Assembly (NCBI GenBank): GCA_050084515.1
Contig: CM114271.1
Span: 43,648,001-43,712,000 of the forward strand
Direction: 5' to 3'
Length of the DNA: 64,000 bases
Origin: Blasia pusilla
Taxonomy: Eukaryota
The stretch's first letter is position 1. Each line of letters begins with the position of its first letter. Made by a program: the position numbers and the translations under genes. The notes below the pieces were generated by a model. The model saw only the letters and a list, made by a program, of their open reading frames with translations. It was not told the origin of the DNA and did not search any database. This document shows positions 2,504 to 34,206 of the stretch, one piece after another.

Positions 2504-7973
<5,470 letters not shown>

Positions 7974-10729
7974 AGCTGGAGCTCCACAGATGACGATGAT
8001 CTAAATTCCTTCCGACATTGGGACCGCTTCCTTTACCCTTCACAGCTTTCGTTTCTCCTACTCTAGTCCCATTCCGTTTCATCAGAATCTGTAATTTTTG
8101 GGTTTTTTTAATGTTGATGGGAGGACAATTAATTAAATTTCTACATTATACAATCTCCTTCGTCTCCTGCACCTGTCAATACCATTTTATATCTTATCTT
8201 GAGCGAACATAACAGACTAGCGATGATTATATGAAAAAATATATTAATACTAAGGGAGTGGAAACACTAGGAAAAAAATACTAACTCACATCACAAAGCA
8301 TAATAAAATGGATAGGAGAGTAAGTGGATAAAAATGATTGATACTAAAATAAATTTTAATACCCAAGGGAAAATGAGGTGGAATAAAGTGGATTAGTAGA
8401 CAAATGCTAACATGGAGTGAAATAAATCCAAAAGTCATTAGTACGTGACTCCGAGCTCCATTCACATTTATGGTTAAAAAGTTTTTACAAAATAGCTTTC
8501 ATTGTGGAGACCGGGCACTACAAATCGACTTAGCACCCATATGCCATCATAAGCATGCATAGCACTAGGAGATAGAAAACTTATTAATATGTCTTGGTAG
8601 TAGGGGCCGTAACAATTTTTTTTCACGTAAATACGGGAAAGAGATGTAAAAGGTAAATGGATGAGTTCTATATGTCATTTAGTTGGTTATTGAGTAAACA
8701 TAAGTGATTTTATTTTTCCCTTTCAAAAATGTTAGCAATGTCTAGTAAATGAATTTATTTGGTCACCTACATAAGTGACTTTCAATTATTGGATGATGTG
8801 GTGGTACTTACTTGGTATCTTCATAAAAAAAAAAATTATCGGTCCATGCAATAACTCAAACAAACTTGTGAACTCTTCTTCCTATCAGTACAGTGGTTCA
8901 GAGGTTCCACCTATTTTCTTCACTGACTTGGTGCATGTTAGATAAGAAAGGAAAATATATATGAGATCCAACACAAATATTATCACCGGACAAGGCACAC
9001 GCTTGGGAGCTTAGCACAAATTCACTATTGGACTTATAAACCTTGAGGTCCGCTAAGGAGCGAAGAATGGATTAAGTCATATCCAATATAAATATGAACA
9101 AATGTAGGATTGATTCCATCGCTATAGTTGTTAATCAAATATTTTGATGCATACTTAGTCTGGAGCTTTTGCACACTCATAACGTTATAAATCAATTTTT
9201 CTGTCAATATTTCTATCTCTAAGAATGTTATGTTTAAACTCAACTCTGAATAGCTTTGGAAATGGGGTTATAAGTTTACCATAGTTAAAGTTCACTCTGT
9301 TTTATTTCCTTGTTATTGCTTAGCTCTTTGTGTTTCTATCTCTATTTGATTAGTCCTACTCTTGTTATGCTTGTATGCTCGGGGTGTGTTGTCTTGGTCC
9401 CCTTGAGCGGACCTACTCTGGTTGTTTTGTATCTTCTATGTAAGACTTGACATTGGGTAATGACTAGTATAAATTTGATTAAAAGCATTCATACTTGACA
9501 GTAGAAGGTGATCCCTTGGAGGAGTTGTCTCCTGAAGCCGTAACTATTCAAGCATAACTGAGGAATTTTTGGTGAGTTTTGCACAAATGCTCCACTCCTG
9601 GTTGATTATTGAGCTTCCACACATGAAGTCTAGTTTGATCCCGTTTGCTTAGGTGTCACCTATAAGGAGGTGGCATTGCTGTTAGAGGAGATTTTGTAGT
9701 CTCCTCTCTAAACCCTTTCATGGGTGGTGTTCACGAGGATCTGTGATCTTGTAGACAAGGTTAATATAATGCACGTTCATTTCCTTTTTCTGCATTACAA
9801 CAACTCTTGAATACATGCACGACGTTGATTGATTGTATATAGAATTACTCTCGAATTTCCAAAATTCTGCCTCCTTCTCTCTATTGGGTAAATTTCTTTT
9901 CTGTTGTCTTTTGATTCACTTCTACCTCATGCCTACTCAGGTCTAAAGTCTTGAGATTTGCTCCTATACACACCTAAACTTCTCTTGGTATCCGGTCAAC
10001 CAAGAAGGAGATGTACATTGGCCTGGAGGGTGCTCTAATACCGTTCTGTCACATACTCTTGCATCTTTCTTCCAATCACTCATTCTGGTCTTGTAAATAC
10101 TAATAGGATAATGTTCTATCAAGAAGCCCACACTCAATAGAAGATTCATAATAGTTTTGCATGCAATCCATTTCAAATTCAATGTCCCAAGGTCCACCCT
10201 CTCGTATATGGTTCTCTTGAGTATCATGTTGAGATATGCTCTCTACATCTGCTTTTAAAGTCTTCAAAGTCCGTTTTGAGAGAAATACAACTCTGATTTC
10301 AACACACCCTAGCTTGCACAATCCACATCTTCAAGGTTTCTAAAACCTTCAACATAATGTGAATAGTTTTCCTTGAATTAGGATAAGATTTGTATGACTT
10401 AAATAAGGTATTGTAGGGTAGCCAAAGAGGGACGAGAATCTAGTACACAACAATACAAATTCCAAAATCCATTATCCCTTTCTAACATAAATATAAGCAC
10501 GCCTGCACCCATGCATCGCATGAACATCGAGCACAATTCGATCATTAACATAGATTGTCATAGTATAATGAGAGGGGACTTCAGATTGGAAACTCCAGAA
10601 AAAATAATACACGGCAATAAAGGCATGAAGATGTCAAAATATGCACAAAATGAAATACTCTAAACTTATTAAAAAACTATGACATCACAGACGAGAATAA
10701 CTTCATTAGAAGATGAGATGATCATTATG

Positions 10730-12189: not shown

Positions 12190-12832
12190 TATCGTGCGCA
12201 TACACATCGCTACAAAACATATATCATTGTCACCGAAAACACACACAAACACGCACGATCCCATGCTAACTCATGGCATCCAAACAACGAGACAAGAAGT
12301 ACCAAAATATCTCCAATAAATCAAGATCCAATTTCTCTCAACACCATAGTTCTCAAATGTGTGCACTCTCACATGTCTCTCTCAATGTCAAACCAAACCC
12401 ACTCTCCTAATGAGAGGCTTGGGTCACACACACAAGGCAAGCAAGACCATAGCTCCGCCGCCTCATACCAAGAGGTTCAACAAATAGAGAATGAGCTCTC
12501 AAGCTCTCTCTCCTTGAGGTATACCCCTCCCCTCCCCCAAGCTCTCTCCATGGTAACCTATGCTCCTAAGTCACCTCCTTGGTTCTTGAACTGATATAGG
12601 AGGTCAAGGGCCACTTACCAAAAATATAAAGTTGACCATATACTCAGACTGGTACTTACCTAAAATAGTAAGTTCCTCAATATGGCTCCAAATGAGCCAA
12701 AACGAAGCGCAAACCTGCTCTCTCAGATTTCTCGGGGCCTCAGTTGGTCTTCCGCAACCTCTTGAGTCTGTCCTTCACTAATCGCAAAGGCACTCTACTA
12801 GATCTCACCGATCTATCCTAGAAGACATGACA
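12190..12832 (-). repeat. Full-length LTR (about 643 bp) of the DNMT-gypsy family, followed by a tandem partial LTR at 12835-12962
   Basis: Minus strand begins TGTCATGTC at 12832 and ends ...GCACGATA; homologous to 25558-26074 and 34718-35310. Confidence 0.85.
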
Positions 12833-13148
12833 TTTATCGTGCGCATACACATCGCTACACAACATACATGGCTGCCATCGAACACACACACAAATACGCA
12901 CGATCCCATGCTAACTCATGGCATCCGAAAAATGAGGCAAGAAGTACCAAAATATCTCCAATCGCCCCCCTAGCTGATGGTTAGATCCCTCTAACTCTAG
13001 ATAGCCATCTATCCCTACCTACCATGATATACATCTCTCGGACGCTAAGAGCAAGAAGGCCGACTACTCATATGGCCCCATCGTTAATCGCCTTCTTGTC
13101 ATCCATGTCACAAACACAAGTCGGAATGTAGAACAACCTACTCTATGT

Positions 13149-13283
13149 ACATCTAGGGCACATCTATCGTCCCTGAGGAACCCTAGTGAGAGGTGGTGTC
13201 AAGCATGCCATATGTCATCCTCTCGAACATCCATTACAGACTAGCATAGTGGCTGCACTACGGGCAGAACCACACAACATACA
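13149..13283 (-). pseudogene. PHD finger at the C-terminus of the gypsy integrase
   Basis: In-frame translation CMLCGSARSAATMLVCNGCSRG*HMACLTPPLTRVPQGR*MCPRC gives a C4HC3 PHD pattern; both stops (TGA, TAG) are one base from TGG at positions where PHD fingers have aromatic residues. Confidence 0.85.
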
Positions 13284-14608
13284 TTGCAAGCATGCAGGAA
13301 GTACTGCTAAGCTTGGATCAATTGTATTGTCAACGTTTGTGAGGTCACATGGCGCACAATTACGCACGTGGTCCTTCCAAACCATACCATAGCGTCCCTC
13401 CAATAAGAGAAAATCTTATGGCAAAACCTCACACACTCTCAAGATGGTGCGTCCTGCACCATCTTGCAGGATGTCGTCTTGCTACAAGTAGACATAGTCT
13501 CCTTGATGAAACCTCTGGATAGTAGGTGGATAACTACCTCCCAAAATAGTCGCATACCTCAATGTATCCTGATGCTGCAAAATCGCCAAGTTCTCAAACT
13601 CCATGGGCATCACTCTCCGAAACAACTCAACCCTCTGAGAACATGCTCGCATTCATACATCAAGGTCATCAAGGTTCAACACCTCACCAACATCTCGACG
13701 AATGGTTGTAGGTCAATCTGGCTCTCGGCCATACAAAAGCAAGTACGGTGACAAAGACGCTAAGGATGCCTGCCTGCTGAATCTATAACCCATCGCCAAC
13801 CACGGCAACTGGAGGTCCCAATATCCTAGGTGACCTCTCTGCAAGCCATACTTGTGTAATCCTCTCTTCACCATCTACACAACCCTCTCTGCTAGTCCAT
13901 CCGCCTCAGGATGATCTCGTGAAGTGGTGCGGTGGTCGATCAAGGCGTGATCACACAAGGCCTGAAACTCTATACCCTAGTCTATCAACACTTCAGCTGG
14001 TGCATCGTAATGACTCAGCACTCAAACTAGGAAGGCATACGCTACTCCCTCACTTGCTTTGTCACGAAATGCAACCAACTCTATCCACTTCGAGAAGTGC
14101 ACGACCATCACCAACACATAACAACTATGGCTCTTCGTCATAGATAAAGATCCTACAAAATCCAAATTCCATCTAAAACCTAAACCGATTATTGGAAGTG
14201 GATGCAGATGTGGAGCATTGACAGTTTCTTGCACTCGATCACACACCATGCATGTGGCAACAAACTGCTGAAAGTCAGTCTGCATGCCTCGCCACCAATA
14301 CTGTATCTGGAGCAAGTTGTACGTCCGCTTTACTCCCAAATAACCCAACTCCTCATGGGCATGACGCACCAAACGTGCTCTCTGCAAAGGATGAGGCACT
14401 ACACGCACTCTACCATCCTCCCAAACTCACAACACATGTATCCCCTCCCACCGGAACCGTCGGGCTCATTGTAATATCCGATCCTACTCTCTAACATCCA
14501 CTGTGATCGCGACGTTTCCAATACGCAGATACTCAAGACCACTCCATTGTCGTGAATGTCACGACCACCTGTCGTCTCCTCACCGGCCTTTCGATCTAAG
14601 GACTCTCC

Positions 14609-14811
14609 GACTCAACTCCTTTCAAGTCTTGTTCCACGTTTGGTCCAGGTTTCTCAATCGCGACCATAACAACTGAAACGCGAAGCCTCGCTTGCGTCCC
14701 GTCTCTTGTCTCTCCTTCGAGACCACTCCAATGCACAAACCATCTTAGCGTGAGCCCGCTAATGTTCCAAAGTTCCGCTTTGGCACTCGTTTGATCATGA
14801 GGATCGCGATA
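14609..14811 (-). mobile_element. Terminal fragment of a second LTR family (same family as solo LTR 27016-28016)
   Basis: Reverse complement matches about 27016-27215 (tgtcgcgacccttatgaccaaacgagtgcc...). Confidence 0.8.
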
Positions 14812-17800
14812 TTATCTCTAGCCACTATCCAGATTAGTATATAGTTTGGGGCTTGAATAAACATCATACTTGAAGTTCTCCATAAAGTTTAGACGTAGCT
14901 TTACCATTGTATCATTGCCATTATGTATATATCTCTCATATATTTCTAACAAGTTATGGGCCTGAATGGGAATCACGATGGTTTCCATGTTGGAATCTTT
15001 GATGGTTCTGACTGGAAAGAGTGGAAGAATCGTGTTCACAATCTTCTTGTTTACAGAGATTTATGGGACGCAGTTGCTAAACGGGTATATAATACATTTG
15101 TGCCAGATGCGTCACCTACCTCTCCTTCTGAAATTGCAGATAAAGCACCTCAAGTATATGTTCGTCAACGTGTACTTCAAACACGGACTATTCAGCAGAA
15201 TGAAAAGTTAGAAAATCAGGCTCGCTTTCTAATTTGTTAACATTTGACAGGAGAACCTCTGGCTCTAACAGAACATCTTGATATAGCTCAAGAAGTATGG
15301 GCCTGCCTATGTCGTAATTATGTTACGACAGTTCATTCTCTGTACTACACTTACAAGCGTCCATGTACAAACTCACTGTTGAATCTTGTAGATCACCTCG
15401 AGATTTTCTGTCACAACTCAAGATTATTGCAAATAATCTTGCATCCCAGAGATCTCCTGTTTTGCACACACATCTATTCACTTTTGCTATTAGCAAATAT
15501 CCTGCTGAATACAAATCTCTCATTCACGTATTGATGCGAGAAAGATAAACCTTCTTTGACGATCTTCAAACCGAGGATCTTGTATGATTCTGAACTAGAT
15601 AAACCTTCAAAATTTGAAAGTATTCTAGTTTCCAATTCTTTTCATAATTCTACCATGAAACGTCCATTTCAATCTATGACTACTTAGTATCAAAGAAATA
15701 TTCCTCAGAGGAATGCCAAACAGCCTTACTCTTACATTTGTAACGAGAAAGATCACATCTCAAGCAAATGTCCTAACAGAAAATTTCTCAAGAAATTCCG
15801 CGAGTATTGCAAAACTCAAACAGAAGATAGCTCATCTTTGCTAGTCAATACTTCACCTATCACTCAAGTATTAGCATGCTCCACATGTGAGGAGCTACAA
15901 CCATATGAACCACTCTATCTGTTCATGATACAAAGACCTTCTACATCTACTTTCCCAGATATTTCCAAACTTTGGATCCTTGATTCTGGTTCAAATTCCC
16001 ATGTTTGCTGTCGAGGAGAATTGTTCTCTAATTTCCTTCCTATTTCTCCAATTCTCATTTTTGGAATACGCAATGGCAAAATATATGCTATAGCTACTGG
16101 GAATGTTCAATTAAAGCTTGTTGTCAAAGGCTCTTACGAATTACATACTCTTTCCAATATTCTATTCATTCCTACAAGACAACACAATATTGTTTTTGTG
16201 AAGAAACTTGCCGAAAACTCTATAGATACCTTTTCTATTCTCACAATATGTCTTTTGAACTCATCAAACAAGGTCATTGTTTAGGTACAGGTTTTGCCAG
16301 GCATGGCATGTATCTAATTGAATATCAATCTTGTACTCCATCGATAATTTTGATAGCCAGAAGTTCATCCAATCTCTGGCACAATCGTATGGGACATCTC
16401 AACAATCAGCATTTATTGCAACTACATCAACAAAAAATGGTTCAAGGTCTAGATCATATCGATGATCTCAATTTCTGTACAAGTTGTGCTAAAGGCAAGC
16501 TCATCAGGCAACATATCACTGGAGATGGACAAGATCTTCCTGTTCAAAAGGCTCTAGATCTTATTCACAGTGATCTGGCAGGACCAATGAAGACACCCAG
16601 TATTGGAAACGCCTACTATTTCTGTACTTTTCTTGACCAATATACAAAGAAATCCTTTGTCCATATTCTTCACAAGAAGTCAGATGTCTTTTCTACATTC
16701 CAGAAGTTCAAATTCATGGTTCAAAAAGAAACAGGTCTGCAGATTCGTGTTCTCAGAACAGATGGAGGTGGTGAATACATAGACTCTTCTTTCCAAGTCT
16801 TTCTTCAAACTTTTGGTATTCTTCATCAACGCACAGGAAGAGATTCTCCTATGTAGAATGGATCTGCTGAAAGACTCAACCGCACACTATAGGAAAAGGC
16901 AAGATGTATGCTCATTCACATGCGCCTTCCTATATTATTTTGGGGAGAAGCAATTGTTACAGCTAACTATCTTCGAAACTTGAGTCCTACTCAAACTCTT
17001 TCAACAACACCTTCTGAAGCTTGGAGTGGTCTCAAACCTACTCTCACACATCTTTGAGTGTTTGGATGTCAAGCATTTGCTCTCATTCCAGCTGAGAGAA
17101 GAAGAAAGATGGATTCTACGGGTGAAGAATGTATATTACTTGGTTATCAGATTGGTTCTAGATGTTATAAACTTTTCAATCCCAATACAAAACATGTTTT
17201 TCTTAGCAAAGATGTTGTCTTCAATGAAGATACTCCTTTCTCCTTCTCTCATGTTGTTCCCTCTACTTATTCTCCATTTTTTTATTCTTTCCCAGTAGAA
17301 AACTCTGAACCGATAATTGTCCCTAAAGCAGTAAAAAAAAAAAAAAACTACAGTTCAGACAAATATTGAAATAGTGGGAGATACTTCAAGAAAAATAGGT
17401 GTTGTTGCTTTAGAGAAATCCATGGGACATCTGCCCACGTCTTTTCATCCTAGGCGATCATCACGAACATCTGTACCAGTACATATGTATGATGCTGCTT
17501 GCTCAAACATTCTTCTCTCTTCTTGTACCCAATCTGATCCACTCACTAGAACAAAAGCCCTCTCTAGATCAGATTCTCATGAATGGCAAACTGTTATGGA
17601 AGCTGAAATTGCCTCTCTTCATGAAAACAAAACCTGGATTCTTGTGACAAATCCTAAAAAGTGCAACTCATTCACAGATACTACCAATATAGTCTCTTGT
17701 AAATGGGTTTTTATGATCAAGCGGTCTTCTTCAGGAAGTATTCTCAAGTACAAAGCGAGGCTGGTAGCCAAAGGTTATTCACAGAAAGAAGGAATTTTTT

Positions 17801-19547
17801 ACAAAGAAACATTTTCTCTTGTCATAAATATCACTTCTCTCCGGATGCTGCTTTCCATTGCTACTGTTCGCAACGCTGAACTACATCAAATGGATGTCAA
17901 GACTACTTTTCTTCATGATGATCTACAAGAAATCATATACATGCATCAACCTCCCGGTTTTGAGGTAACTGATCAAGGTCCACAGGTATGTCTTCTCAAG
18001 AAAGATCTTTATGGCTTGAAGCAATCCTCTCGAGCTTGGTATCAAAAGATGGATGGATATTTGACTTCTGCAAGTTTTCTCAGAAGTACTTATGATCCTT
18101 GTTTGTATCACAAACAATCTTCTACAGATCAATTACTCATAATTGATGTATATGTAGATGATCTTGCTATTCTATCAGATAATCTCATTCAGCTACAACA
18201 ATTTCAAATTCATGTTCAATCCATTTTTAAAATGGTTGACATGGGAGAGCTTCATCACTTGTTAGGACTTCAGGTGGTAAGAGACAGGGCACGTCACAAG
18301 ATTTCTTTGCATCAACAAAGGTATATCTGTGAAAAACTTGTAGAATTCGGTATGAAAGGTTGTCATACAGTTTCTACCCCTTCTTTGCCTGGGACAACAT
18401 TGTCCAAGCCCACATCTGCTCCTACAAGTGATGATCTTGCTCATTTTCAGTAATATCCATATGCTACGATAGTTGGAAGTCTTATGTATGCTTCAACCAT
18501 GACTCGTCCCGACATCTCTTTTTTGTCGGCCGATTATGCAAATACATGTCCAACTATTCTATTGAGCATTGGCAAGCTGCCATGCATGTTCTAAGGTATT
18601 TGAAGGGAACTTCCAATATAGGTATCACCTTTGATGGTTCCACCCATGATATGCACATGCCAGTTTCGCTTCTTCTAAAGATGATAGAAAATCTATTTCA
18701 GGATTTGTTCTTATCATGGCAGGAGGTGCAGTACATTGGGCCTCAAGGAAGCGGGACAATTCTTCGCACGTCTACTCTGAAGCTGAATATATAGCCCTTA
18801 ATGAGGCCACCAAAGAAATACTTTGGATTCGACATTTACTTGCTTTGAGATTGGTTTTTTCACAAAAACTCCAACAATTTTTACGAAGACAATCAAGTCT
18901 GCAATTCAACTATCAAATATTTTTGTTCCAATTCCAAAATCCGACATTTGGAACTAAAATTCTTCTTCATATAGAACACATTCAACAACAAAATATTCGT
19001 CTACAAGAATGTAGATCTTGATTCAGTCTTTGATGTTTTGACTAAAAGTCTATCTAAAGACCAACATCATTTTTTACTCCAAATATTAGGATGTAGGATA
19101 TGCAATTGAGTGGGAGATACGACACTTTTCGAGTAGACAGCTTCATGTTCCTCGAGCTAGATTATCCTAGCTCAGTGGGAGTGTTAGATAAATACATTTT
19201 AGATAAAGGTGTTCGACTTAAAATGTGTTAAAGGAACTACCTAAATGCTGCTACTCTTAGGAGTCCGACATCTAACCTAAGACACTTGATCACTTGACTA
19301 AAAGGGCCACTTGGACATTTGGCTACTTGGCCACTTGACCACTTGGCTAAAAGGGCCACTTGGCCACTTGGTCAGTTGGGTACTTGGCCACTCAACCACA
19401 GACTATCTTATCTCTAGCCACTATCCAGATTAGTATATAGTCTGGGGCTTGAATAAACATCATACTTGAAGTTCTCCATAAAGTTAAGACACAACTTTAC
19501 CATTGTATCATTGCCATTGTGTATACATCTCTCATATATTTCTAACA
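14812..19547 (+). mobile_element. Ty1/copia LTR retrotransposon, degenerate (stops and frameshifts), 5' LTR truncated
   Basis: gag (FDGSDWKEWK), protease WILDSGSNSH, LWHNRMGH and rve integrase (HSDLAGP, RTDGGGEY), RT (YKARLVAKGYSQ, HQMDVKTTFL, YGLKQS, YVDDL), RNaseH in copia order. 3' LTR 19182-19547 (TGTTAGA...TCTAACA) after PPT agtgggag; 5' LTR remnant 14812-14951 matches 19408-19547. Confidence 0.95.
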
Positions 19548-20452
19548 CATCGCTTGACCCAAGACATGACGTCGTGATGCCTCTAGTAGTGACGGTAGTG
19601 TCGTCACTCCTATGGGGAATCCCATCGCTCGCTCTTGCTCATCACCGTTAGGCTCCCCCAACCTCTACACCTTGTCATCCCAAACCAAGCGAGATACGGC
19701 CTCCTTGAATACATAAAAAGCGGGAAAACTCACCAATGTGGGAAAGGCTGCTCGTGGCATGCCAATCCTGTTGACCACAGTCAATGGTGGTCGATCATCG
19801 TACCTCACTGCCTGTGATTGACGGTCCGGATCCAATATAGAATCCATCAACAAATCAAAGGGACACTCCACTCTTGTATAAGCCCTCCGTAACACCTCAT
19901 GTGGCACCAAGTTGGTCCACCAAAGACAAGGGCGATGTGCTCGTAAACCCACACTCGCCGCATCCAACAAAACTGTCGGGCTGATCCACGCACTTGATGT
20001 GCACTCGTCACCACACGGGACCTCGAATCGGCACATTCTCCAGAATTTATGCATGAGGACTAGATTGATGCTCTTGCAAGTGTCGCAAGATCCCCATCAT
20101 TTCCCAAAATAACTTGGACCAAGAGTCAACTAATCCACTACCCCGTCCATCACTCAACTGGCCCCGACATGGCCAACCAGCAATGACCAAGTTTATGGTC
20201 CCTACCCGCTCCAAGTCCTGCACCCCCAACAATGAAATATCCGTTGGTAGGGAGCTCTGGTTACCCTGAATGGCAGACGCACACAACAAGTCGGGAAAAT
20301 GGAGGCATAACTGCGCCACATGGTGAAGTAAAGCGCCCCTTGCAACATCATCAATCTCCACATATAGAAACTATTGCACGCGCACTCTAGCTTGCAAAAA
20401 AACAACTAACCCTGTGTTGATCCCTCCAAAGAGATCCAACACCCAAATACCC
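19548..20452 (-). pseudogene. C5 cytosine methyltransferase domain of gypsy copy A
   Basis: VLDLFGGINTG (motif I), MEIDD (II), DI (III), LVIAGWPCRG (IV), SKLFWE, ILENV (VI), RAHRPCLWWTNL (VIII); cut within motif X by the copia 3' LTR. Confidence 0.88.
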
Positions 20453-23400
20453 TCCTCTGGGATACACCACACAATCGGGGTGGTGTCCAAAGGGGTCAAA
20501 GGAGAACTCATGGCTACCAGGGGGTTCCTTTGACCCATCACACTCTAGTGCAAGTATCTCGCTCCACGTGGTCTGCACATGCTCAATGGCTAAGCATCGG
20601 TTTTTTTGCCTTTTTTTTGTCTAACAGTCCCCCTGGGGCCCTATCTGACAAGGCCCTTGGGGGGATTGTCATGAAGCTCCTCAGTCAAACCCCAAAGGGG
20701 CACCTCTCCTGCACAGACTAATGCCGCTATCATGACACTCCTCTCCATAGAAATGTCAGGAACGGGAGTATCCTCTACATGGACATGTCCCTCAATCAAA
20801 TCACTAGGCTAAGTGATGGCATTGCTAAATACTGCTAAGGTCGCCATCTCTCATGGCTGTTGCTCGATCACTGCACGTGTGAATCGAATGGGTAATGAGC
20901 TAAGGCGCCCCTCACCTGACTACCATCCTGGTATGTAGGATGATGACTCCTCCCAATAATCCAGGGAAATCCCATCGGGTATAACACTGCTCCACCAACC
21001 AAGACGTCGTAGGACTCTACATTAGTCACTATCGCCTTGGCTCACACTAGTGACTCATCTATAGGATGTCCCGGGTGAATCCTCACCACGACCTCCTATC
21101 GGGTGATATATTATATGGTACTCACTCCACCCAAGGATGTATGTATCCGGAATGGACAACGCTCCACATCGGCTCTCGTCAAGCCCAATCCTCTGAATGA
21201 CGCTTTCCCAACATCAGGGGTCGCACTCCTGAATCCAACAAAACGTGTTGCGGACTAAAAGCTCTACCTCCGGGACTCGCCAACTAGAAGACCTCTCCCC
21301 GGTTTTCTAGTAACACAACATCACAAGAAGCCATGGCACGCTCTATTGCGGGTCTAGCGAGCATCTCCGCCATCCTAGTAGCCGCAACCTGTTATGAATT
21401 TGACGTGGAGGGCCTGAGCATCCACTCCAAGGGCAGGTCCATCACCTCCTCTGCAATCACCTCTGAACGTGATGCAGGAACTCCAACTCCACGCTCACAT
21501 AGCGAAGCGGCGAGCCAGAACATCTCGGTGGGTGTACCTCCCAATGTCATAACATTGGAAGCAGAAAATAGCAGAGCACCATACACCATCGTGGCCGTCC
21601 CCAACATCGTACTCGATACATGCTCCTCATGAGCATCAACAATAGGAGTCGTCGCACTCATTTCTCCCATTTCCCTCCGTGCCTGCACACCAATAACATC
21701 ACCTACTCAACGGAAACTCTGATCATGACCCATCAATGGGGTCCTCATTGCCTCGGACAACGTGAAAGACTGAGGAAGCCTGGTTTGTTTCTTGGCTCCC
21801 CTTGGATGTGGACCCAACTCTGCAGCTGCTCCACATGTCATAACTGCGGCGGCCTCCATCTAGGCAACTCCGCACATCCAACCATGATCTTCCATATCTC
21901 TGGTTGCTCCATATGATGTCGATGCCACGGATCCGGCATTGGGTAACAGGAATGCCATAGCGGAAATCTGCTCCTATAGCTACGGTATGTGAGCAGCCAT
22001 CCTAGCCTCACGCCCGGCGTCTTCCTCTGTCGGGAAACTCCAGCTCCTCGTCCCCCAATGGGACCACCTGGTGCACGATGTCTAGCCCACCCGGATCGGA
22101 TACTCGCTCTAGTGCCCTTTTTGGCCCTTGGTCCGGACGTAACTGAGGGTGTAAATTGAAACACCTGGCGCATGTGTGACCATAACTCTGAAAATAGTCA
22201 CATTGATAACCTCCTGATGCAACACCATCTCCTCCTCCATGTTGAGGCACACGTCCTTGATCTTGACGAGTGCAATCGCGCTGATGATGGGCTCCACCAC
22301 ATGACCAACAAGTAATCGTAGGCAGTTGCTGTTGAGCCGCATATGAAGGCGCATGTCTCTGTGGCATGGCCTCCCGGTATCCTCCTTAAGTTCTTGGTGC
22401 CACAGTCAACCTATCTTGGAGTCCACGTTGCTGCACTAGTGGTGTAGGCAATCGTGACTGCTCTCGCCCAAAACCCATGGTGGCTACACTCTCCTCCGCC
22501 ATGTTGCGCTCAATATTCTCAGCGGTCCTAAAAACATCTCTCAACGTAGGTGAGATGTTCATAAGAAGTACCCCTTCCCGCACCCGTGTCCGCAGGTCCA
22601 GTCCAGCATCGCGTACCATAATTGGATAGCATGAGCCTCTGTCATCCCCTGAGTGATGTTGATCAACCGGTGCAAGCCATTGTAAGCCTCACGCAAACTC
22701 TCACCCAGGCACCTCTAGAAGTCGTGGATGCTCCGCAACTTCTCCGTCTGTACCCCATGGTAGCTCGCCCTCAACTGAACGAAGAACTCAACCATGGGGT
22801 TGAACCGGGACGAACCCGACTGGACGGTGCAACTGCTCCAGTGCGAGTTACCCCTCCTATAACATCACTGGTGGAAGAGGAAGTAGCCTATCCTGACTCC
22901 TTCTCCTCATCTGGAACGGACCCGTCCATGACACATAGTGTGGGTCATAGTAGAATCGCCATGCCTCAATCTCTTGGGCATATATGTGGGAAAAATCATG
23001 GTAATCGTCCATAGGTGCCCCTCTAGATGCTGGAGCATACCGTTCCATGCTGTAAATGGGTTGAACTATCTAGAGTTCCTAGCCCGCTGTGAGTCGCACC
23101 AACCCCTAAACTCCATGATGAAGTCGTGCAACTCTATCGTGCCTACTGCATTTGAGAACCTATGCGGTCCTCTTCCCCGGTCGTCCATCTTGTACGCCCA
23201 AGAAATAGAACTACTCAATGTTAGTGGCTAAGCATTACTTAACTCCTCTACACCCTCCTCCTTGTTTGAAGATGACATAGAAGGAGATCGAGGTGGTCCC
23301 GCACGTGGAGACCCTCGAAACCTCGCGCCACTCCGTGTAAATCCTCTAGAGCTACTCTTCGGTCCACCACCTCGCCTCTCAAAGTCTTGAAAGGACGTCG

Positions 23401-26400
23401 TGATGACCCTCCTGCCCCCCTCACACAATCACTCTCAACCTCGCGAGTAATCACGCAATCACTTAATCTAACATGCGGCACTCAAGCTACAGTCTCTCAT
23501 CGAGACGTGAACTATGCAGCAACAAGCGGCATGGTGCGAAAAATCAACTGATCTATAGTCTCATCGATAAACCATCCTCAACTCTGGACATCCCACACAG
23601 GTCTATGTGCCCTCAACCCATACGTCATCGATACTCTCAACATCAGCACGAAACCCAATATCCCAAATAACTTCACGATACCCGAAATTCCCTCATACGT
23701 GTAGGGTAAGAGACCAGAATGGGTAACCAAACAATAATCTCGATGTCGTTCCTCGCCAACTACAAATCTTGACCCCACCTTGGTCGTGAAGACAACTCCT
23801 CCTTAGCAAGTCATACTCCTCTCTTACTGATTCTGCTCAAACCTCCTCAAGATGTGGTGCGGATCCAACAGTACGATGCAGCACTAGCGGCACGGAACCG
23901 CTACAGAATGGCACAACACTCGATAATGGGATGCGGCACTCCGCGGCATACCCTCCGCAATCAGCAATTCACATGCTCTGCTCCTTAGTGAAGGAGCAGC
24001 TCTGCGATCGAGATGGTGCAGCGCGGCCACGAGCGGCATGGCGTGGCAATCGGCGGCGCGTTGCGGATACGGGCGTCATGGCACGGCACTCGATCGTCGT
24101 TGAGCGGCTAACAATCACAACATAGCAAACTGAAATGAAAACTCAAACACCATAATCCGAGGTCACCTAACATCATTGGTTGATGACAAAACTACGATGA
24201 CAATGGCGGCCAAAAAAAATTACGTGGTGTGGGTGCAAGTCAGAGAATCAACAGTCGTCGTGGAAGACCCTCCACTCCGTAATGGGGGCAATAGCAACCA
24301 AGGGTGGACAACGGCCGAACGCGGCTCTGAGCAGCGCTAGGTGAAAGCGGCGAACGAAGATGGACGGTGGACCATTGATGATAATGATGGACCTTTGACA
24401 CTGAAAATTGATCGTTGATGGTGATAGTTAACTGTTGACATTGACTATGATGGAAACGGCCACCGCCGGCACGGCAGCTAGTTTAGGGTTTGAACAATTT
24501 TACACTAAAAATTTCCTAGCAATGGAAATTTTGCAAAATTGACTATAACTTTTTGCTCACAACTCCAAATTATGTACAGTTTATTGCACACATGCACAGC
24601 TTCATGATCTACGACAATATCAAAAAATATTTTGAATCAAACATTCCAGTAAAAATTGACAGGGATTGTCGTAAAGCCCAACATCTCTTTCTCCTACACA
24701 AAATTTGGCAGCGCTTCCGCGCAGATTTCTCCCAAAAAAATGTAAAACCTATGAAAACACAAATCAACAAGCTACATGGTGCTCCCAAGAGCATCGGCAT
24801 GGGGAAATTCCCTCCCATACTCAATCCCTATAAAAAATTGGGCAGCACTTCCGCACGCCCAATTCTACACGAAAAATCAGCAAAAGAAACATAAAAAAAT
24901 GAGCGGCTCCAACTCCGGTGAGCAATCCCATGAACCGCTCAACGGGGAATACGATCCCCAACCTGAAGCATAAATAATTAGGAAATGATAATATATGTAA
25001 TAAAAAATATCCATAAAATAATACATTCTTGAGTACGTCCGAGAAAGAAGCACCTAACCTAATATAGGTAGATCAACAGTTCATTGAAAAAGAACAAACA
25101 AAAGAGTACAATATTCACAAATAATAATGATAAATAAATAAGGATATTCTAATGATACTTTTAATACTTAAACGTAAAAAATGCCTTATTATTAATTTGT
25201 GTGATTTTTTAAATGACAAAAATAAAATCAATAACCAAATTATCTAAAGTAGTGAGAGTGTGAGCAAAGACGTGAATGAAGAGAGGGCGGGCCATGAGTT
25301 CATAGACAAGACTACTTGTGAACAAAGAGAGGCGGGGCCGCAAGGGCATGAGTTTAGAGATGGCGCGAACGAGGAGAGAGGTTGACGGGAGAGCGCAATT
25401 AGGAGGGGGCGGGGGCGCGAGTTTGGAGACTAAATAGAACTGGGTGAGACAAGTTTCGCAAGTGGCGGAAGAGTAGGTACCTTGATATTCAAGAGTGAAA
25501 GAAGAGGGTGAGATTAGGGCAAAGGGCGAGTTAGGCTTATTCAAATCAAAGCTCAAGTGTCACGTCTTTTAGGATAGATCGGTGAGATCTAATAGAGCGC
25601 CTTTGTGAGTAATAGAAGACAGGCTCAATAGGTCGATGATGACGTGCTGAGGCCTCGAGAAACTTGAGAGAGCAGGTTCCCCCTTCGTTTCGCCTCATTT
25701 GGAGCCATATTCATAAACTTACTATTTTAGATAAGTACCATTTTGAGTATATGATCGACTTTATATTTTTGGTAAGTGGCCCTTGACCTCCTACATCAGG
25801 TCAAGAGCCAAGGAGGTGACTTGGGAGCATAGGTTACCATGGAGAGAGTTTGGGAGAGGGGAGGGGTATACCTCAAGGAGAGAGAGCTTAAGAGCTCATT
25901 CTCTCCTTATTGAACCTCTTGGCATAAGGCGGCAGAGCTACGGTCTTGCTTGCCTTGTGTGTGTAACCCAAGCCTCTCATTAGGAGAGTGGGTTTGATTT
26001 GATATTGAGAGAGATGTGTGAGAGTGCACACATGTGAGAACTATGATGTTGTGAGAGATATTGGATCTTATTTTACAAAGAGAGAATTAGTGAGTGAGAA
26101 AGCTTCATGGGGGAGCTTGCTGGTCACTCGTTGGTTTTTCAAGTTGGGGATCATATTCCCGGTTCAGCGGTTCATGGGAGTGCTCACCGGACCAAGAGCC
26201 GCTTACTTGTGATGTTGCCTTTGCCAATTTTTTGTGTGGAAGAGTGGCGTGCGGAAGCGCTGCCCGATTTTTGTAGGGATTGAGTATGGGGGCGAATTTC
26301 CCCATACTGGTGCTCTCGAGAGCACCGTGTAGCTTTTTGATTTTTATTTTCACACGTTATATATTTTCCTTGGGAGAAATCAACACAGAAGCACTGCCAA

Positions 26401-27015
26401 AATTTATGTAGGAGAAAGAGACGTTGGATTTTACGACAATCCTTGTAAGTTTTTACTCAAATTTCTCCTTCAAAATATTTTTTAACGTTGTTGTAGATCG
26501 TGAAGCTTCGCAGGCTGTGCAACAAACGGTGCATAGGGGACATAGACTTGTGTGGGATGTCTATAGTTGAGGATGGTATATCAATGAGACGATAGATCAG
26601 TTGATTTTCCGCACCACGCCACCTGTTGTTGCACAATACAGGTATAGTGAGAGAGTGTAGATTGAGTACCGCATGTTTAGTTTGAGTGATTGAGGGATTA
26701 CTCGCGAGATTGAGAGTGATCGTGTGAAAGGGGCACGAGGGCCATCACGACGTTCTTTCGTGATTTTGAGAGGCAAGGTAGTGGACCCGAGAATAGCTTT
26801 GAAGGGTTTACCCAAAGTGGTGTGAGGTTTTGAGGGTCTCCACGTGAGAGACCACCTTGATCTTCTTTTGTGTCGTCTTCAGACAAGGGGGAGCATGTAG
26901 AGGATTGTGTTAGTGATCCACCCTCCATATTGAGTGGTCCTACCAGTTGGGCGTACGAGAGGCAAGACCGAGATAGAGGACCGCATAGGTTTTCGGGTAT
27001 TGTAGACACTATAGA

Positions 27016-28016
27016 TGTCGCGACCCTTATGACCAAACGAGTGCCAAGCGGAACATCGGAACATTAGCGGGCTCACGCTAAGATGGTTTGCGCGTTGGAG
27101 TAGTCTCAAAGAGGAGACAAGAGATGAGACGCGAGTGAGGCTTCGCGTTTCAGATGTTGTGGTCGCGATCAAGAAACCTGGACCAAACGCGAATGAGACT
27201 TGAAAGAAGTCGAGTCTAGGAAGTGGGTTGCCAAAGGAAGGATCCGGATTTGGAACACCACTAGCGTTTAAGAGTTTCCGATTGTATTTATGGCCATAAC
27301 TTTTAGCGCCAAGATGCGTTTGGATTAAATAAGGGTGCGTTGGAAATCTTGTAGAAAGCCGGTTCAAACACACCAAAGAATGCTGGAAACGCATAAGCAG
27401 CGGCTGAGAAAAAACCCGGAAACGATTGTAAGTGGAGTCGGGTTGAGGGCCACAATGAAGGGCCCGACCCTCCTTTTCCAAAGGGGGGGGTTATTGGAGA
27501 ACCCCAGAAGTACTAGTAAGGGGGAAGGTCTTCGAGAGTGCTTGGAACCCAAACCCCACTTTGGGCGCCGCGGGGCGGCTCAAGGGCATGGAACGGAACG
27601 CGAGTTTGGGGGTTGGGTTGGAAAACCTGCACCAAGTCCATTGAGGTGATTTTAGACATCCCTCTTGGATTTCACCCCGCGACTCAATTACTTGGGTCTC
27701 GGTTTGGAACTCCCACGAGGACTGTTGAACAGTTGGGATCGCTAGGCGCGCGGGTGCCATTTCAGATCCCTGGACTATCTAGGAAGTCTGTTCCAAGTCT
27801 TGAAGGACTTGCCATGTTTTGGAAACTAGGACCTAAGGAAGGTTGAGCTTGATGAGACGCCGAGTTGAGGACTCGGTGGGTTGGAACGCTGGTCGACCCA
27901 GACCCGACTAACGAGAGTGCGTGTTTGGGTGCAGATCGGCGATGAGTTCGTGACCTACTGAACGTACGCTTCCGAAACACTAAAGATTGACGTTCAAGGA
28001 GAGTAGGGGCACGACA
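27016..28016. mobile_element. Solo LTR (1001 bp) inserted in gag of gypsy copy B
   Basis: TGTCGCG...CACGACA termini, exact 5-bp target duplication ATAGA (27011-27015 and 28017-28021); the site is empty in copy A (about 23130). Confidence 0.92.
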
Positions 28017-30678
28017 ATAGAGCTATATGACTTCACTGCAGAGTTTAGAGTTGGTGTGACTCACAACGGGCTAGGAACTCTAGAAAGTTCAACCTATTTA
28101 TTGCATGGAACGGTATGTTCCAGCATTTAGAGGGGGAACCCATGGACGATTACCATGAGTTCTCCCATAGATATACCTAGGAGATTGAGGCATGGCGACT
28201 CTACTATGACCCACACTATGTGTCATGGATAGTGCCGTTTCCAGATGAGGAGGAGGAGTCAAGAGAGGCTACTTCCTCTTCCACTAGTGATGTTTTGGGA
28301 GGGGTCACTCGCACTAGAGCAGTTGCACCATCTAGTCGGGTTCATCCCACATTTACCCCCGTGGTTGAGTTCTTCGCTGAGTTGAGGGCGAGCTACCAAG
28401 GGGTACGGACGGAAAAGTTACAGAGCATCCATGACTTCCAGAGGCGCCCGGGTGAGAGTTTGCCTGAGGCTTACACTCGCTTACGTTGGTTGATCAACGT
28501 CACTTAGGGGATGATAGAGGCTCAGGCTATCTAGATGGTACACGATGCTGGAAGGGACCCTACGGACACGGGTGCGGGAGGGGTGCTTCTTATCAACACC
28601 TCCCCTACATTGAGAGATGGTTTTAGGACCGCCGAGAATATTGATCGCAACATGGCGGAGGAGAGCATAGCATCCATGGGTTCTGGGCGAGAGCCATCAC
28701 GATTGTCTGCACCACAAGTGCATCAACGTGGACTCCGAGATAGGTCAACTATGGCACCACGAGCTTAGGGAGGATATCGGGAGGCCGTGCCACAAGGACT
28801 TGCGCTTGCATATGCGGCTCAGCAGCAGCCACCTACAATTGCTTGTTGGTCATGTGGTGGAGCCCATCATCAGCGTGATTGCAGTCGTCAAGATCATGGA
28901 CGTATTCCTCAGTATGGAGGAGGAGACGGTGTTGCACCAGGAGATTATCAATGTGAGTGTTGTCAGAGGTATGGTCACACATGCGTCAGGTGTTTCAATT
29001 TACACCTTGAGTTATGTCCGGACGGAGGGCCAGAGAGGGCACTAGAGCGAGTAGTCGGTCCGGTGGGCTAGAGATTGTGCATTAGGTGGTCCCGTTGGGG
29101 GACGAGGACCTAGAGTAACCCGACAGGGTGGTGGAGTTGCCCGTGGAGGAGGTAGAGTCCCACCACCTAGAGGCATTGAGGGAGATGCCGGACGTGAGGC
29201 TGGGATGGCTGCTCATATATAGCAGCTACAAGAGCATATTGCCACTATGGCATTGAGGTTACCCGATGCTAGATCCATGGCATCAACATCATATGGAGCA
29301 GCCAAAGATATGGAGGATCTTGGTTGGATGTGGGGGGTTGCCCAGATGGAGGCCGCCGCAGTTGTGACGCGTGGAGCAGTCGTAGAGTTGGATCCACAGT
29401 GAGGGGAAGCCAGGAAATAGACGAGGCTTCCTTAGTCTTTCACGTTGTTTGAGGCAATGAGGATCCCATCGATGGGTCGTGATCAGAGTTCCTAGAGAGT
29501 TCATGATGTTATTGGTGTGCAAGCACGGAGAAAGATGGGAGAAACGAGTGCGAAGACTCCTATTACTGATGTTCAGGAGGAGCATGTGTCAAGCACGTTG
29601 TTGGAGGCGGCCACTATTGTGTACCAGGCTCCTTTGTTTTCTCCTTCCGATGTTATGAGGTTGGGAATTACGCCCGCGGAGGTTTCCTGGCTGGCCGCTA
29701 CGCTATGTGAGCATGGAGTTGGAGTTCCTACATCATGTTCAGAGGTGATTGCAGAGGAGGTGATGGACCTGTTCTTGGAGCGGATGCTCGGGCCATCCAC
29801 GTCAGATTCATGGTAGGCTGCGGTTGCTAGGATGGCGGAGATGCCCGCTAGACCCGCGATAGAGCGGGCTATGGCTTCTCCTGGTGTTGTGTTGCTGGAT
29901 AACCAGGGAGATGTCTTCCAGTTGGCGAGTCTAGGAGGTAGAGCTTTTAGTCCGCAACGCGTCTTGTTGGATTCAAGAGCGCAACCCCTGATGTTGGGGA
30001 AAGCATCATTCAAAGGATTGGGCTTGACGAGAGCCGATATGGAGCATGGTCCATTCTGGATACACACATCCTTGGGTGGAGCAAATACCACACAGTATAT
30101 CACCCGACATGAGATTATGGTGAGGATTCGCCGAGATATCCTATAGATGAGTCCGTGGTGGGAGCCAAGGCGATAGTGACCAATGCAGAGTCCTACGACG
30201 TCTTGGTTGGTGAAGCACTGTTGTACCCAATGGGGTTTTCCCTGGATTACTGGGAGGAGTCAGCATCCTATAGACCAAGATGGCAATTGGTGATGATCGA
30301 ATTTGTTCATTACTTGTTCGATTCACAGGTGGAATGGTCGATTGACGGCTAGGAGAGATGGCAACTTTAGCAGCATTTAGGAGTGTCATCACGTGGCCTT
30401 CTAATTTGATTGAGGGGCATGTCCATTTAGAGGATATCCCCGCGCCTACCACTTCTAGGAAGAGGAGTGTCATGATACCCGCATCATTCCTTGGAGGAGA
30501 GGTGCCGCTATGGGGCTCGACTGAGGAGCTCCGACGTTTATCTGATGAGCATGTGCAGACCGCGTGGAGTGAGGCGTTTGCATCTGAGCATGACAGATTA
30601 GAGGAACCCGAGGTAGCCAGGAGTGCTGCTATAACCCCTTTGGACACCACCCCGATTGTGTGGTGCATCCTAGAGAAG

Positions 30679-31620
30679 GGTATTTGCGTGCTGGTTCTCT
30701 TTGGAGGGATCAACACTGGTTTAATTGTTGTTTTACAGGCAGGAGTGTGCATGCAACCGTACCTATACGTTGAGATTGATGATGTTGCAAGGCGCGCTTC
30801 ACTTCACCATGTGGCGCAGTTATGCCTTCGATTTCTCGACTTGTTGTCTGCGTCCGCCATCCAGAGATACCAGAGTTCCCTACTGAGCGACATTTCATTG
30901 CTGGGGGCGCACGACTTGGAGCGGGTAGGGGCCATAGAGTTGGTCATTGCTGGTTGGCCGTGTCAAGGCCAATCGAGTGCTGGACGAGGTAGCGGGTTTG
31001 CTGATACTCGGTCCAGGTTGTTTTGGGAGATTATGCAGATTTTACGACACTTGAAGGAGCATCAATCTCGTTCTCCAACATACATTTTGGAGAATGTGCA
31101 GCTTTTGGGCGATTCGAGGTCCCGCGTGGTGACGAGTGTACATCAGGTGCGCGCATGGATTGGCCCGGCAGTGTTTTTTGATGTGGTGAGTGTAGGTTCT
31201 AGAGCATACCGCCTGCGTCTTTGGTAGACCAACTTGGTCCCACATGAGATTTTGCGCAGGGCGTAAGCTAGAGTGGAGCGCCCCTCCGATTTGTTGGTGG
31301 ATTCTATTATGGATCCAGGTCATTGATCACAAGCAATGAGGCACAATGATCAATTGCCATTGACTATGGTCAACATGATTGGTATGCCAAGGGAATACTT
31401 TCCCACATTTGTGAGTTTTCTTGCTTCCTATACATTCAAGGAGGCCAAACCTAGCTTGGTTTGGGATGACCATGTATAGAGGTTGGTGGAGCCCAATGCC
31501 GATGAGCAAGAGCAAGTGATGGGATTCCCCACCAGAGTGATGGCAATACCATCACTATCAGAGGCATCACGACGTCATGTCTTGGGTCATGCGATGGACC
31601 TAAACTGCTTAACATGGACT
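30679..31620 (+). pseudogene. C5 cytosine methyltransferase domain (DNMT3/DRM-like motifs, non-permuted order) of gypsy copy B
   Basis: One reading frame: LFGGINTG (I), YVEIDD (II), SDI (III), LVIAGWPCQGQS (IV, catalytic Cys), RSRLFWE, ILENV (VI), RAYRLRLW*TNL (VIII), EQEQVMGFP (IX), SRRHVLGHAMD (X). Four in-frame stops (31225, 31264, 31324, 31477) and no frameshift. Confidence 0.92.
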
Positions 31621-34173: not shown

Positions 34174-34206
34174 TTAGGGTTTAGGGTTTAGGGTTTAGGG
34201 TTTAGG
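34174..34206 (+). repeat. Interstitial plant telomeric repeat (TTTAGGG), about 4.7 units
   Basis: ttaggg tttaggg tttaggg tttaggg tttagg read directly. Confidence 0.9.

Follow-up and report, generated by a model that had tools for sequence, protein, structure and literature searches.

Retrotransposons that carry chromatin readers or DNA methyltransferases (DNMTs) show mobile DNA adapting to the epigenome of its host. A 64,000-nucleotide (nt) stretch of Blasia pusilla DNA (GenBank assembly GCA_050084515.1, contig CM114271.1, positions 43,648,001 to 43,712,000 of the forward strand) raises the question of whether both modules can belong to one element family and, if so, what the reader would do there. 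The whole of this stretch is called the window, and positions are counted from its first letter. Self-alignment shows that it holds one element in two copies, arranged head to head: copy A on the minus strand (about nt 24967 to nt 12190) and copy B on the plus strand. A first-pass annotation of the same DNA had placed a C4HC3 PHD finger, broken by two stops, downstream of the integrase core in copy A, and had proposed that reader and writer reside in one polyprotein.

Here, nt 14546-13146 are almost certainly the decayed 3' half of pol from a DNMT-bearing Ty3/gypsy-type element, the integrase of which ends in a canonical PHD finger. The parts of this region, which belongs to the second open reading frame (ORF2) of the element, are as follows.

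nt 14546-13146, minus strand: what remains of ORF2 (pol) in copy A, its 3' half; a single frame of 467 codons interrupted by 12 stops
nt 14384-14229, minus strand: zinc-binding domain of the integrase (Integrase_H2C2; Pfam PF17921, E 2.9e-15, 56.6 bits)
nt 14174-13911, minus strand: integrase catalytic core (rve), decayed (Pfam PF00665, E 3.5e-6, 27.7 bits, below the cut-off of 32.6; relatives align across it)
nt 13910-13284, minus strand: integrase C-terminal region from the catalytic core to the PHD, with conserved blocks, matched together with the PHD as one stretch in relatives
nt 13283-13149, minus strand: PHD finger, C4HC3, at the C-terminal end of the integrase (Pfam PF00628; alignment of relatives)
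nt 13143-13145, minus strand: natural stop codon of ORF2, one codon past the last PHD cysteine, where intact relatives end too

The integrase of copy A was translated from window:12960-14798 on the minus strand, in a single frame and with X in place of stops. In this translation the profile search suggested by the first-pass annotation returned PF00628 at residues 506-550, corresponding to nt 13283-13149 (E 6.8e-8, 32.9 bits against a cut-off of 24). The finger reads CMLCGSARSAATMLVCNGCSRGxHMACLTPPLTRVPQGRxMCPRC, followed by T and then by a stop. All 8 zinc ligands are present with the canonical spacing C-x2-C-x11-C-x2-C-x4-H-x2-C-x14-C-x2-C, so both the position and the cysteine/histidine pattern had been read correctly from the letters. 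The two stops lie at nt 13215-13217 and nt 13164-13166, and tryptophan occupies both sites in 7 of 7 compared relatives. That count is right for the PHD itself but not for the whole frame, which has 12 stops within nt 14546-13146 and 19 in the entire 613-codon translation. Each of the 12 falls on a sense residue that is conserved among the compared relatives.

In addition, five relatives (P0356, P0357, P0359, P0361 and P0362) align by tblastn to nt 14546-13146 as single pieces in frame -3, with 55-68% identity, and therefore no frameshift has to be assumed in this region. The tblastn alignments of copy A to intact relatives finish 0-13 residues short of the relatives' C-termini. As copy A is heavily decayed and the pattern is broken by two stops, it could be asked whether the cysteines and histidine match by chance, or come from a host exon that this copy alone has captured. 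The probability of this is negligible. It is ruled out by a Pfam score that clears the cut-off in spite of the stops, by the single-frame alignments and by the presence of the same domain at the same place in hundreds of relatives, the closest of which are 66-75% identical and end 1-13 residues past the PHD.

To collect the relatives, 1.84 billion cluster representatives were searched with a 167-residue query that spans the integrase C-terminus and the PHD. This gave 3867 matches at E<=1e-3, of which 642 reached E<=1e-10 and 53 reached E<=1e-30, the best being 1e-47; a scan of viral contigs gave no match. Query residues 1-165 were matched as one stretch in nearly all of the best 150 relatives. 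Pfam placed a PHD above the cut-off downstream of rve in 23 of 23 long relatives and a DNA_methylase domain, at E<=1e-4, in 7 of them. When the window's own frames were used for BLAST, 32 of the 150 relatives proved to contain a region homologous to its DNMT; where these DNMT-holding relatives also show reverse transcriptase (RT) or RNase H, the order is RT-RNaseH-DNMT-integrase (21/21).

Longer proteins were gathered by a word-index search with P0002, the closest representative, and 16 of these were scanned by Pfam. Six are single ORFs in the order that is also the window's, protease-DNMT-RT-RNaseH-integrase-PHD (P0164, P0191, P0195, P0196, P0186 and P0201), and four of the six have a zinc knuckle above the cut-off. 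The window's order is found without a PHD match in five others (P0169, P0252, P0259, P0262 and P0263), P0169 stopping just short of the PHD start. The order RT-RNaseH-DNMT-integrase-PHD is seen in P0202 and P0224, and a PHD with no Pfam DNMT in P0199, P0203 and P0255. Among 102 homologues of the P0164 DNMT region, our count of the domain table gives PF00665 in 77 and PF00628 in 65. Three metagenome contigs (L005, L008 and L011) encode RT-RNaseH-integrase-PHD in uninterrupted ORFs, and in L005 and L011 a DNMT match is present at E<=1e-3, below the Pfam cut-off. Intact copies that have a DNMT together with an in-frame integrase-PHD do exist, as the first-pass annotation expected: all 23 long relatives have the PHD, including the 7 with a DNMT, and the six single ORFs have everything in one frame.

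The DNMT occupies two sites in these proteins. The first, between protease and RT, is that of the window's type and of the six single-ORF relatives. The second, between RNase H and integrase, is that of the commoner chlorophyte and environmental type (P0015, P0041, P0106, P0202, P0224, L005 and L011), which sometimes has a G-patch as well. DNMTs of both placements are 36-37% identical when P0164 is compared with Haematococcus and Monoraphidium proteins. A more distant integrase relative, P0441, lists both a chromodomain (PF00385) and a PHD (PF00628) among its precomputed domains. Two of the metagenome contigs have very long upstream or neighbouring ORFs: L005:1419-9632 (2738 residues), in which Pfam finds a zinc knuckle only, and L008:5883-12341 (2153 residues), in which Pfam finds nothing.

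Closer to the window, relatives of the copy A integrase-PHD are 57-75% identical to it. Those with names are proteins of Calypogeia fissa, Marchantia polymorpha (Mp_7g09570), Riccia sorocarpa and Sphagnum fallax. In this subfamily the coding region is divided. Intact proteins of about 1035 residues (P0359, P0361 and P0362) read RT-RNaseH-integrase-PHD, and the alignment places their second residue at copy B nt 31907-31913, frame 2. Proteins of 1330-1451 residues (P0271, P0272 and P0278) read gag-protease-DNMT and map by tblastn to copy B nt 28049-31641, where the DNMT part uses frame 1. The window's subfamily therefore has two overlapping ORFs, gag-protease-DNMT as ORF1 and RT-RNaseH-integrase-PHD as ORF2. 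The proposal of one polyprotein thus holds for the single-ORF relatives but not for the window's own subfamily, in which DNMT and PHD lie in different ORFs, unless the frames are joined in translation. The C-termini also differ between groups: the chlorophyte forms have 220-320 residues past the PHD, as against 1-13 in 9 of 9 close subfamily relatives (P0356-P0399). The Marchantia protein (P0383, Mp_7g09570; 612 residues), annotated as "PHD-type domain", aligns piecewise to the protease-DNMT and integrase-PHD parts, and has the appearance of a gene model that spans a decayed member of this family.

Neither copy in the window displays the whole element, and its structure is best followed by reading the two together. 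The features of copy B are:

nt 25555-35299, plus strand: copy B, whole (self-alignment, Pfam, tblastn)
nt 25555-26075, plus strand: 5' repeat body, the sole 5' body of the two copies (self-alignment)
nt 30598-31641, plus strand, frame 1: DNMT (Pfam DNA_methylase, 1e-11; tblastn)
from about nt 31907, plus strand, frame 2: ORF2 with RT (RVT_1, 4.6e-24), RNase H (RT_RNaseH, 7.7e-29) and integrase (Integrase_H2C2, 1.9e-13)
nt 34716-35193, plus strand: body of the 3' repeats (self-alignment)
nt 35193-35299, plus strand: repeat X of the 3' repeats (self-alignment)

The features of copy A outside the surviving half of ORF2 are:

nt 24967-20675, minus strand: upstream part with leader, gag and protease (collinear with copy B; tblastn matches for gag and protease)
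nt 20460-19548, minus strand: Dnmt3-like cytosine methyltransferase domain (tblastn with P0278 and P0164; collinear with copy B nt 30546-31596)
nt 14809-19547, plus strand: Copia-type retrotransposon at the place of RT and RNase H, with terminal repeats at nt 14809-14951 and 19405-19547
about nt 12972-12965, minus strand: purine run AGGGGGG, just upstream of the first X
nt 12962-12835, minus strand: first repeat X (128 bp; self-alignment)
nt 12835-12317, minus strand: repeat body (about 520 bp; self-alignment)
nt 12317-12190, minus strand: second repeat X (self-alignment)

Copy B is ordered 5' body, gag, protease, DNMT, RT, RNase H, integrase, body, X. Its gag has a CCHC-type Cys/His motif that is seen by eye, with no Pfam zf-CCHC match at E<=0.01; the protease motif was also found by eye and is backed by tblastn matches of the protease region. 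Read with X at stops, nt 26001-29000 of copy B contain no Pfam family. Copy B can be aligned to copy A down to A nt 13429, at which point it enters the terminal repeat, and A nt 13428-12836 have no counterpart. It follows that copy B has lost by deletion its integrase end together with the PHD, the purine run and the first X. The first-pass annotation had claimed this deletion, and had called the full architecture a composite of two copies; both claims are borne out, as copy B is without the PHD and copy A is without RT and RNase H. Both copies are dead and the value of the find therefore lies in the family, not in the locus.

The sense strands of the two copies are markedly enriched in G relative to C (GC skew +0.17 to +0.23) and slightly in T relative to A (nt 13146-14546, 19548-23140 and 28014-34690). 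The G excess is absent from the Copia element (-0.105) and from 4 of 5 distant relatives, L008 having +0.28; the skew may be intrinsic to the window's subfamily.

To what kind of element do these copies belong? KnitGypsy-Dnmt3 of Klebsormidium nitens is described as a Gypsy element whose Pol includes a Dnmt3-like domain and whose repeats follow the A-coding-B-A-B layout of DIRS elements (de Mendoza et al. 2018, PMC5890265). The window element is alike on all three counts. It is of Gypsy type, copy B having the Ty3/gypsy pol order of RT, RNase H and integrase H2C2 flanked by direct repeats. The Dnmt3-like domain lies inside the coding region in both copies. The A-coding-B-A-B layout is present as a composite, with X-body-X at the 3' end of copy A, the body alone at the 5' end of copy B and body-X at the 3' end of copy B, the first X of which went with the deletion. 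The window family belongs to the published Gypsy-Dnmt3 kind. It differs in that its closest named relatives are liverwort and moss proteins, not those of Klebsormidium; K. nitens KFL_015960010, which has integrase and PHD, is 47% identical to copy A. The word PHD does not occur in the text or the three supplements of PMC5890265, figure 4c lying outside the search. That paper also assayed DNMTs from other retrotransposons for de novo methylation in yeast.

The window's DNMT has DNMT3A, DNMT3B and DNMT3C as its nearest solved chains (E about 1e-8), then the plant enzyme DRM2 and then M.HhaI. Read by eye, Pro-Cys and Glu-Asn-Val in copy B are what we take to be motifs IV and VI of such enzymes. 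No ADD or PWWP domain was matched in the element by Pfam (copy B and relatives), and it is the catalytic domain only that lies inside the retrotransposon ORF. Host DNMT3, a cellular gene with introns, and the element are alike in combining a Dnmt3-type catalytic domain with a reader of the zinc-finger class that probably prefers the unmodified H3 tail. The difference is that host DNMT3 has an ADD beside the catalytic domain, whereas the element has a canonical PHD on its integrase. Since the nearest solved PHDs are canonical ones (CHD4, KMT2C/D, PHF12 and KDM5) with no ADD among the chains listed, the likeness to the ADD of host DNMT3 is a functional analogy only.

Other retrotransposons also carry chromatin readers. 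Chromoviruses are Ty3/gypsy elements whose integrase has a C-terminal chromodomain (Gao et al. 2008, cited by PMC6673714). They are similar to the window element in that a histone-reader domain is fused to the integrase C-terminus, with the same logic of tethering integration to chromatin state, and they are dissimilar in that the reader is a chromodomain instead of a PHD. Pfam finds no Chromo family in copy A at E<=1, nor in the 23 and 16 relatives scanned. PHD fingers in retrotransposons are known generally, to go by the available portions of PMC6673714, PMC8557442, PMC9940879 and a domain co-occurrence survey (10.1101/2021.11.30.470311), and the PHD of the window family fits this known habit of retrotransposons carrying chromatin readers.

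The Chlamydomonas elements are similar to the window's, being green-lineage Gypsy elements with a PHD in pol. REM1, said to have been described by Perez-Alegre in 2005, is reportedly a PHD-bearing retrotransposon of Chlamydomonas. Gypsy-7a_cRei is a further PHD-bearing Gypsy element of this alga (figure legend in PMC9940879, in the part available). A methyltransferase goes unmentioned in the accessible portions of these descriptions, which sets them apart from the window's element. P0199, which is C. reinhardtii CHLRE_09g398141v5 and reads RT-RNaseH-integrase-PHD, carries homology to the retrotransposon DNMTs at residues 1223-1533, in the RNase H-integrase gap (25-29% identity, E 1e-23 to 4e-27), although Pfam detects no DNMT there. 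The idea that "Chlamyvir" elements had been described with a PHD was not borne out, as "PHD" does not occur even once in the main text of REXdb, the reference classification for plant LTR elements (PMC6317226), and the two papers that contain both words concern other matters, judging by their titles and the openings of their abstracts. The word "methyltransferase" is likewise absent from the REXdb main text.

A reader and a DNA methyltransferase have been reported together in EpiLTRs, which are LTR elements with a chromodomain, a DNMT4-related enzyme and a DAM domain, giving adenine and cytosine methyltransferases (10.64898/2026.05.21.726589, in the part available). EpiLTRs are therefore alike in having both activities in one LTR retrotransposon, and unlike in the modules used, the window element having a PHD and a Dnmt3-like enzyme. 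The available part of the same source lists "streptophytes (Gypsy-DNMT3)" as a separate, earlier case and does not mention a PHD finger, the sole "PhD" being in its acknowledgements. A search of the full-text literature, with most subscription journals and all figures outside its scope, found no description of PHD and DNMT in one element, judging by titles, the openings of abstracts and selected passages. The pairing, and its reach into bryophytes, thus appear not to have been spelled out in print. Here, both modules are found in one element family that reaches land plants, and as liverworts and a moss supply the nearest named relatives, the idea is testable in tractable bryophyte models with existing chromatin maps.

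Has the PHD been retained because it does something? Across 20 aligned sequences its zinc ligands vary little or not at all, and the family consensus is ...MLLCDxCxxGWHxxCLxPPLxxVPxGxWxCPxC. Nonsynonymous (dN) and synonymous (dS) divergence were estimated for ten ORF pairs from environmental loci with 75-99% amino-acid identity, which are distant relatives of the window's subfamily. In 9 of the 10 pairs dN was 0.04-0.08 over the integrase C-terminus and PHD, whereas the whole ORF gave 0.10-0.17; dS in these pairs was either at saturation (1.6 or more) or could not be computed. The tenth pair (L014/L015) is near-identical, with dN of 0.005 and dS of 0.089 for the whole ORF. The lower dN over the integrase C-terminus and PHD means that the finger is constrained at least as much as the rest of pol. 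The integrase polypeptide of live relatives includes the PHD, which selection maintains.

A family profile of the PHD was then compared to all solved chains, of which 116 matched; the following refers to the best 60 of these 116. The best matches are CHD4 (both fingers), KMT2C/KMT2D, PHF12, the first PHD of KDM5/Lid, WSTF and ATXR5. The best matches also include DPF2/3, BAZ2A/B, UHRF1, KAT6A/B, ORC1b, PHF21A, Rco1 and AIRE. Neither the ADD domain nor ING, BPTF or TAF3 is found among these 60. The last three are readers that hold methyl-lysine in a cage, whereas most of the fingers nearest to the family PHD read the unmodified N-terminal tail of H3. Because the nearest fingers are mostly of this type, and the cage readers are not among the chains listed, the best guess for the ligand of the family PHD is the unmethylated H3 tail.

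From this ligand a function can be proposed. The PHD would tether the integrase-cDNA complex to nucleosomes by binding the H3 N-terminal tail, most likely in its Lys4-unmethylated state, and such tethering would steer insertions away from active promoters, much as the chromodomain does for chromoviruses. Separately, the element's own methyltransferase would methylate DNA. A targeting mechanism of this kind has in our view slightly better than an even chance of being correct. The best explanation overall, a DNMT-bearing Ty3/gypsy element with the integrase PHD as a tether to the H3 tail, is reasonably probable.

The same fingers, however, can be used to argue for a different ligand. PHD fingers as a class read many states, and several of the nearest solved fingers belong to double-PHD modules with other specificities. 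The finger could therefore tether the integrase to methylated H3K4 at promoters, to H3K9me3, to acyl-lysine or to a non-histone protein, and the targets would then differ. Against this, the family consensus aligns best with fingers of the CHD4, KDM5 PHD1, PHF21A and AIRE type, and has glycine two residues before the histidine, where the cage readers have tryptophan. Cnidarian retrotransposons with PYGO-like PHDs, which are said to recognise H3K4me (preprint 10.1101/2021.11.30.470311, in its accessible part), are a precedent for this other kind of ligand. With both sides considered, another mark or partner is quite improbable.

The second alternative is that the PHD is real but does not direct integration. 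Instead, it would serve the DNMT or a step after integration, either by bringing the DNMT to nucleosomes with unmodified H3 as an ADD does, or by recruiting a host factor. The co-occurrence of the two modules (the PHD in 65 of the 102 DNMT-region homologues) speaks for such a role, as does the RT-RNaseH-DNMT-integrase-PHD arrangement, in which the DNMT directly adjoins the integrase (the 21 relatives above). The position of the PHD speaks against it: the finger is always at the C-terminus of the integrase, beside the domain that contacts target chromatin in retroviral and Ty3-type integrases. In addition, P0002, P0003, P0134 and P0136, all among the best 150 relatives, have contiguous RT, RNase H and integrase plus PHD with no DNMT between them; P0203 and P0255 have the PHD without a Pfam DNMT; and in the window's subfamily the DNMT is in a separate ORF. 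A role apart from integration is therefore unlikely, and tethering of the integrase to the H3 tail is the explanation that we prefer.

Several points nonetheless weigh against H3-tail tethering, or against any cooperation between the PHD and the DNMT that might accompany it. Some of the nearest fingers read states other than the unmodified tail, namely H3K9me3 (CHD4 PHD2) and acyl-lysine (DPF). DNMT-bearing relatives P0252, P0259, P0262 and P0263 form a subgroup with another C-terminus and without the PHD, so the finger is not needed for the persistence of that lineage. The location of the two domains in different ORFs in the window's subfamily is a further difficulty, and cleavage by the element's protease may separate DNMT from PHD in any case. 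The surroundings of the window copies are rich in repeats. This would agree with insertion into silent chromatin, but nothing is proved by two or three dead copies. Taken together, the architecture proposed by the first-pass annotation is real and present in many intact relatives, with the qualifications that the window's subfamily divides it between two ORFs and that one DNMT subgroup lacks the PHD.

A more far-reaching scheme can be put forward tentatively, and we consider it possible but doubtful. In this scheme an old and widespread green-lineage Ty3 clade (chlorophytes, Klebsormidium, liverworts and mosses), absent from the plant LTR reference classification searched, would combine a Dnmt3-like writer with an integrase PHD that reads unmethylated H3K4, and so would have rebuilt the ADD-plus-methyltransferase logic of host DNMT3. 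Such elements would insert at unmethylated H3K4 and methylate their own new copy, a self-silencing that spares the host, and the DNMT would have moved between two places in the polyprotein.

Returning to the window, how did its copies decay? Copy A is dead, as its surviving frame is interrupted by 12 stops, its RT and RNase H are gone and it contains the Copia insertion. The Copia element has terminal repeats of 143 bp with 94% identity by self-alignment. A CCHC-type Cys/His motif is seen by eye in its ORF at nt 15688-16284, and its long ORFs are putatively gag/protease, integrase and RT, as read by eye. The 3' end of the copy A DNMT domain is cut at the Copia boundary. A simple Copia insertion was considered as the cause of the missing RT and RNase H and was rejected: no matching target duplication was found at the Copia flanks, and the flanks join parts of copy A that are not adjacent. 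For these two reasons the loss may have involved recombination instead. Differences between copies A and B have a transition/transversion ratio of 2.0 (532/266), with 187 of the 532 transitions at CpG, which we read as ordinary decay with no special signature.

Self-alignment of the window did not find a 5' repeat body for copy A, and nt 24967-25555 (588 bp), where it would be expected, match nothing else in the window. Just upstream of the copy A integrase, a 204-bp segment (nt 14609-14812) is 87% identical to nt 27015-27216 in the 5' leader of copy B. The latter is the edge of a 1-kb stretch (nt 27015-28014) that is missing from the matching place in copy A. A fragment of the repeat body at nt 1-158, which is 80-87% identical to nt 12675-12832, 25558-25711 and 34719-34834, points to a third copy or a solo repeat. 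Apart from the element, nt 7635-8000 on the minus strand hold an ORF fragment that presumably resembles an exon of a host gene of the isopropylmalate or isocitrate dehydrogenase type.

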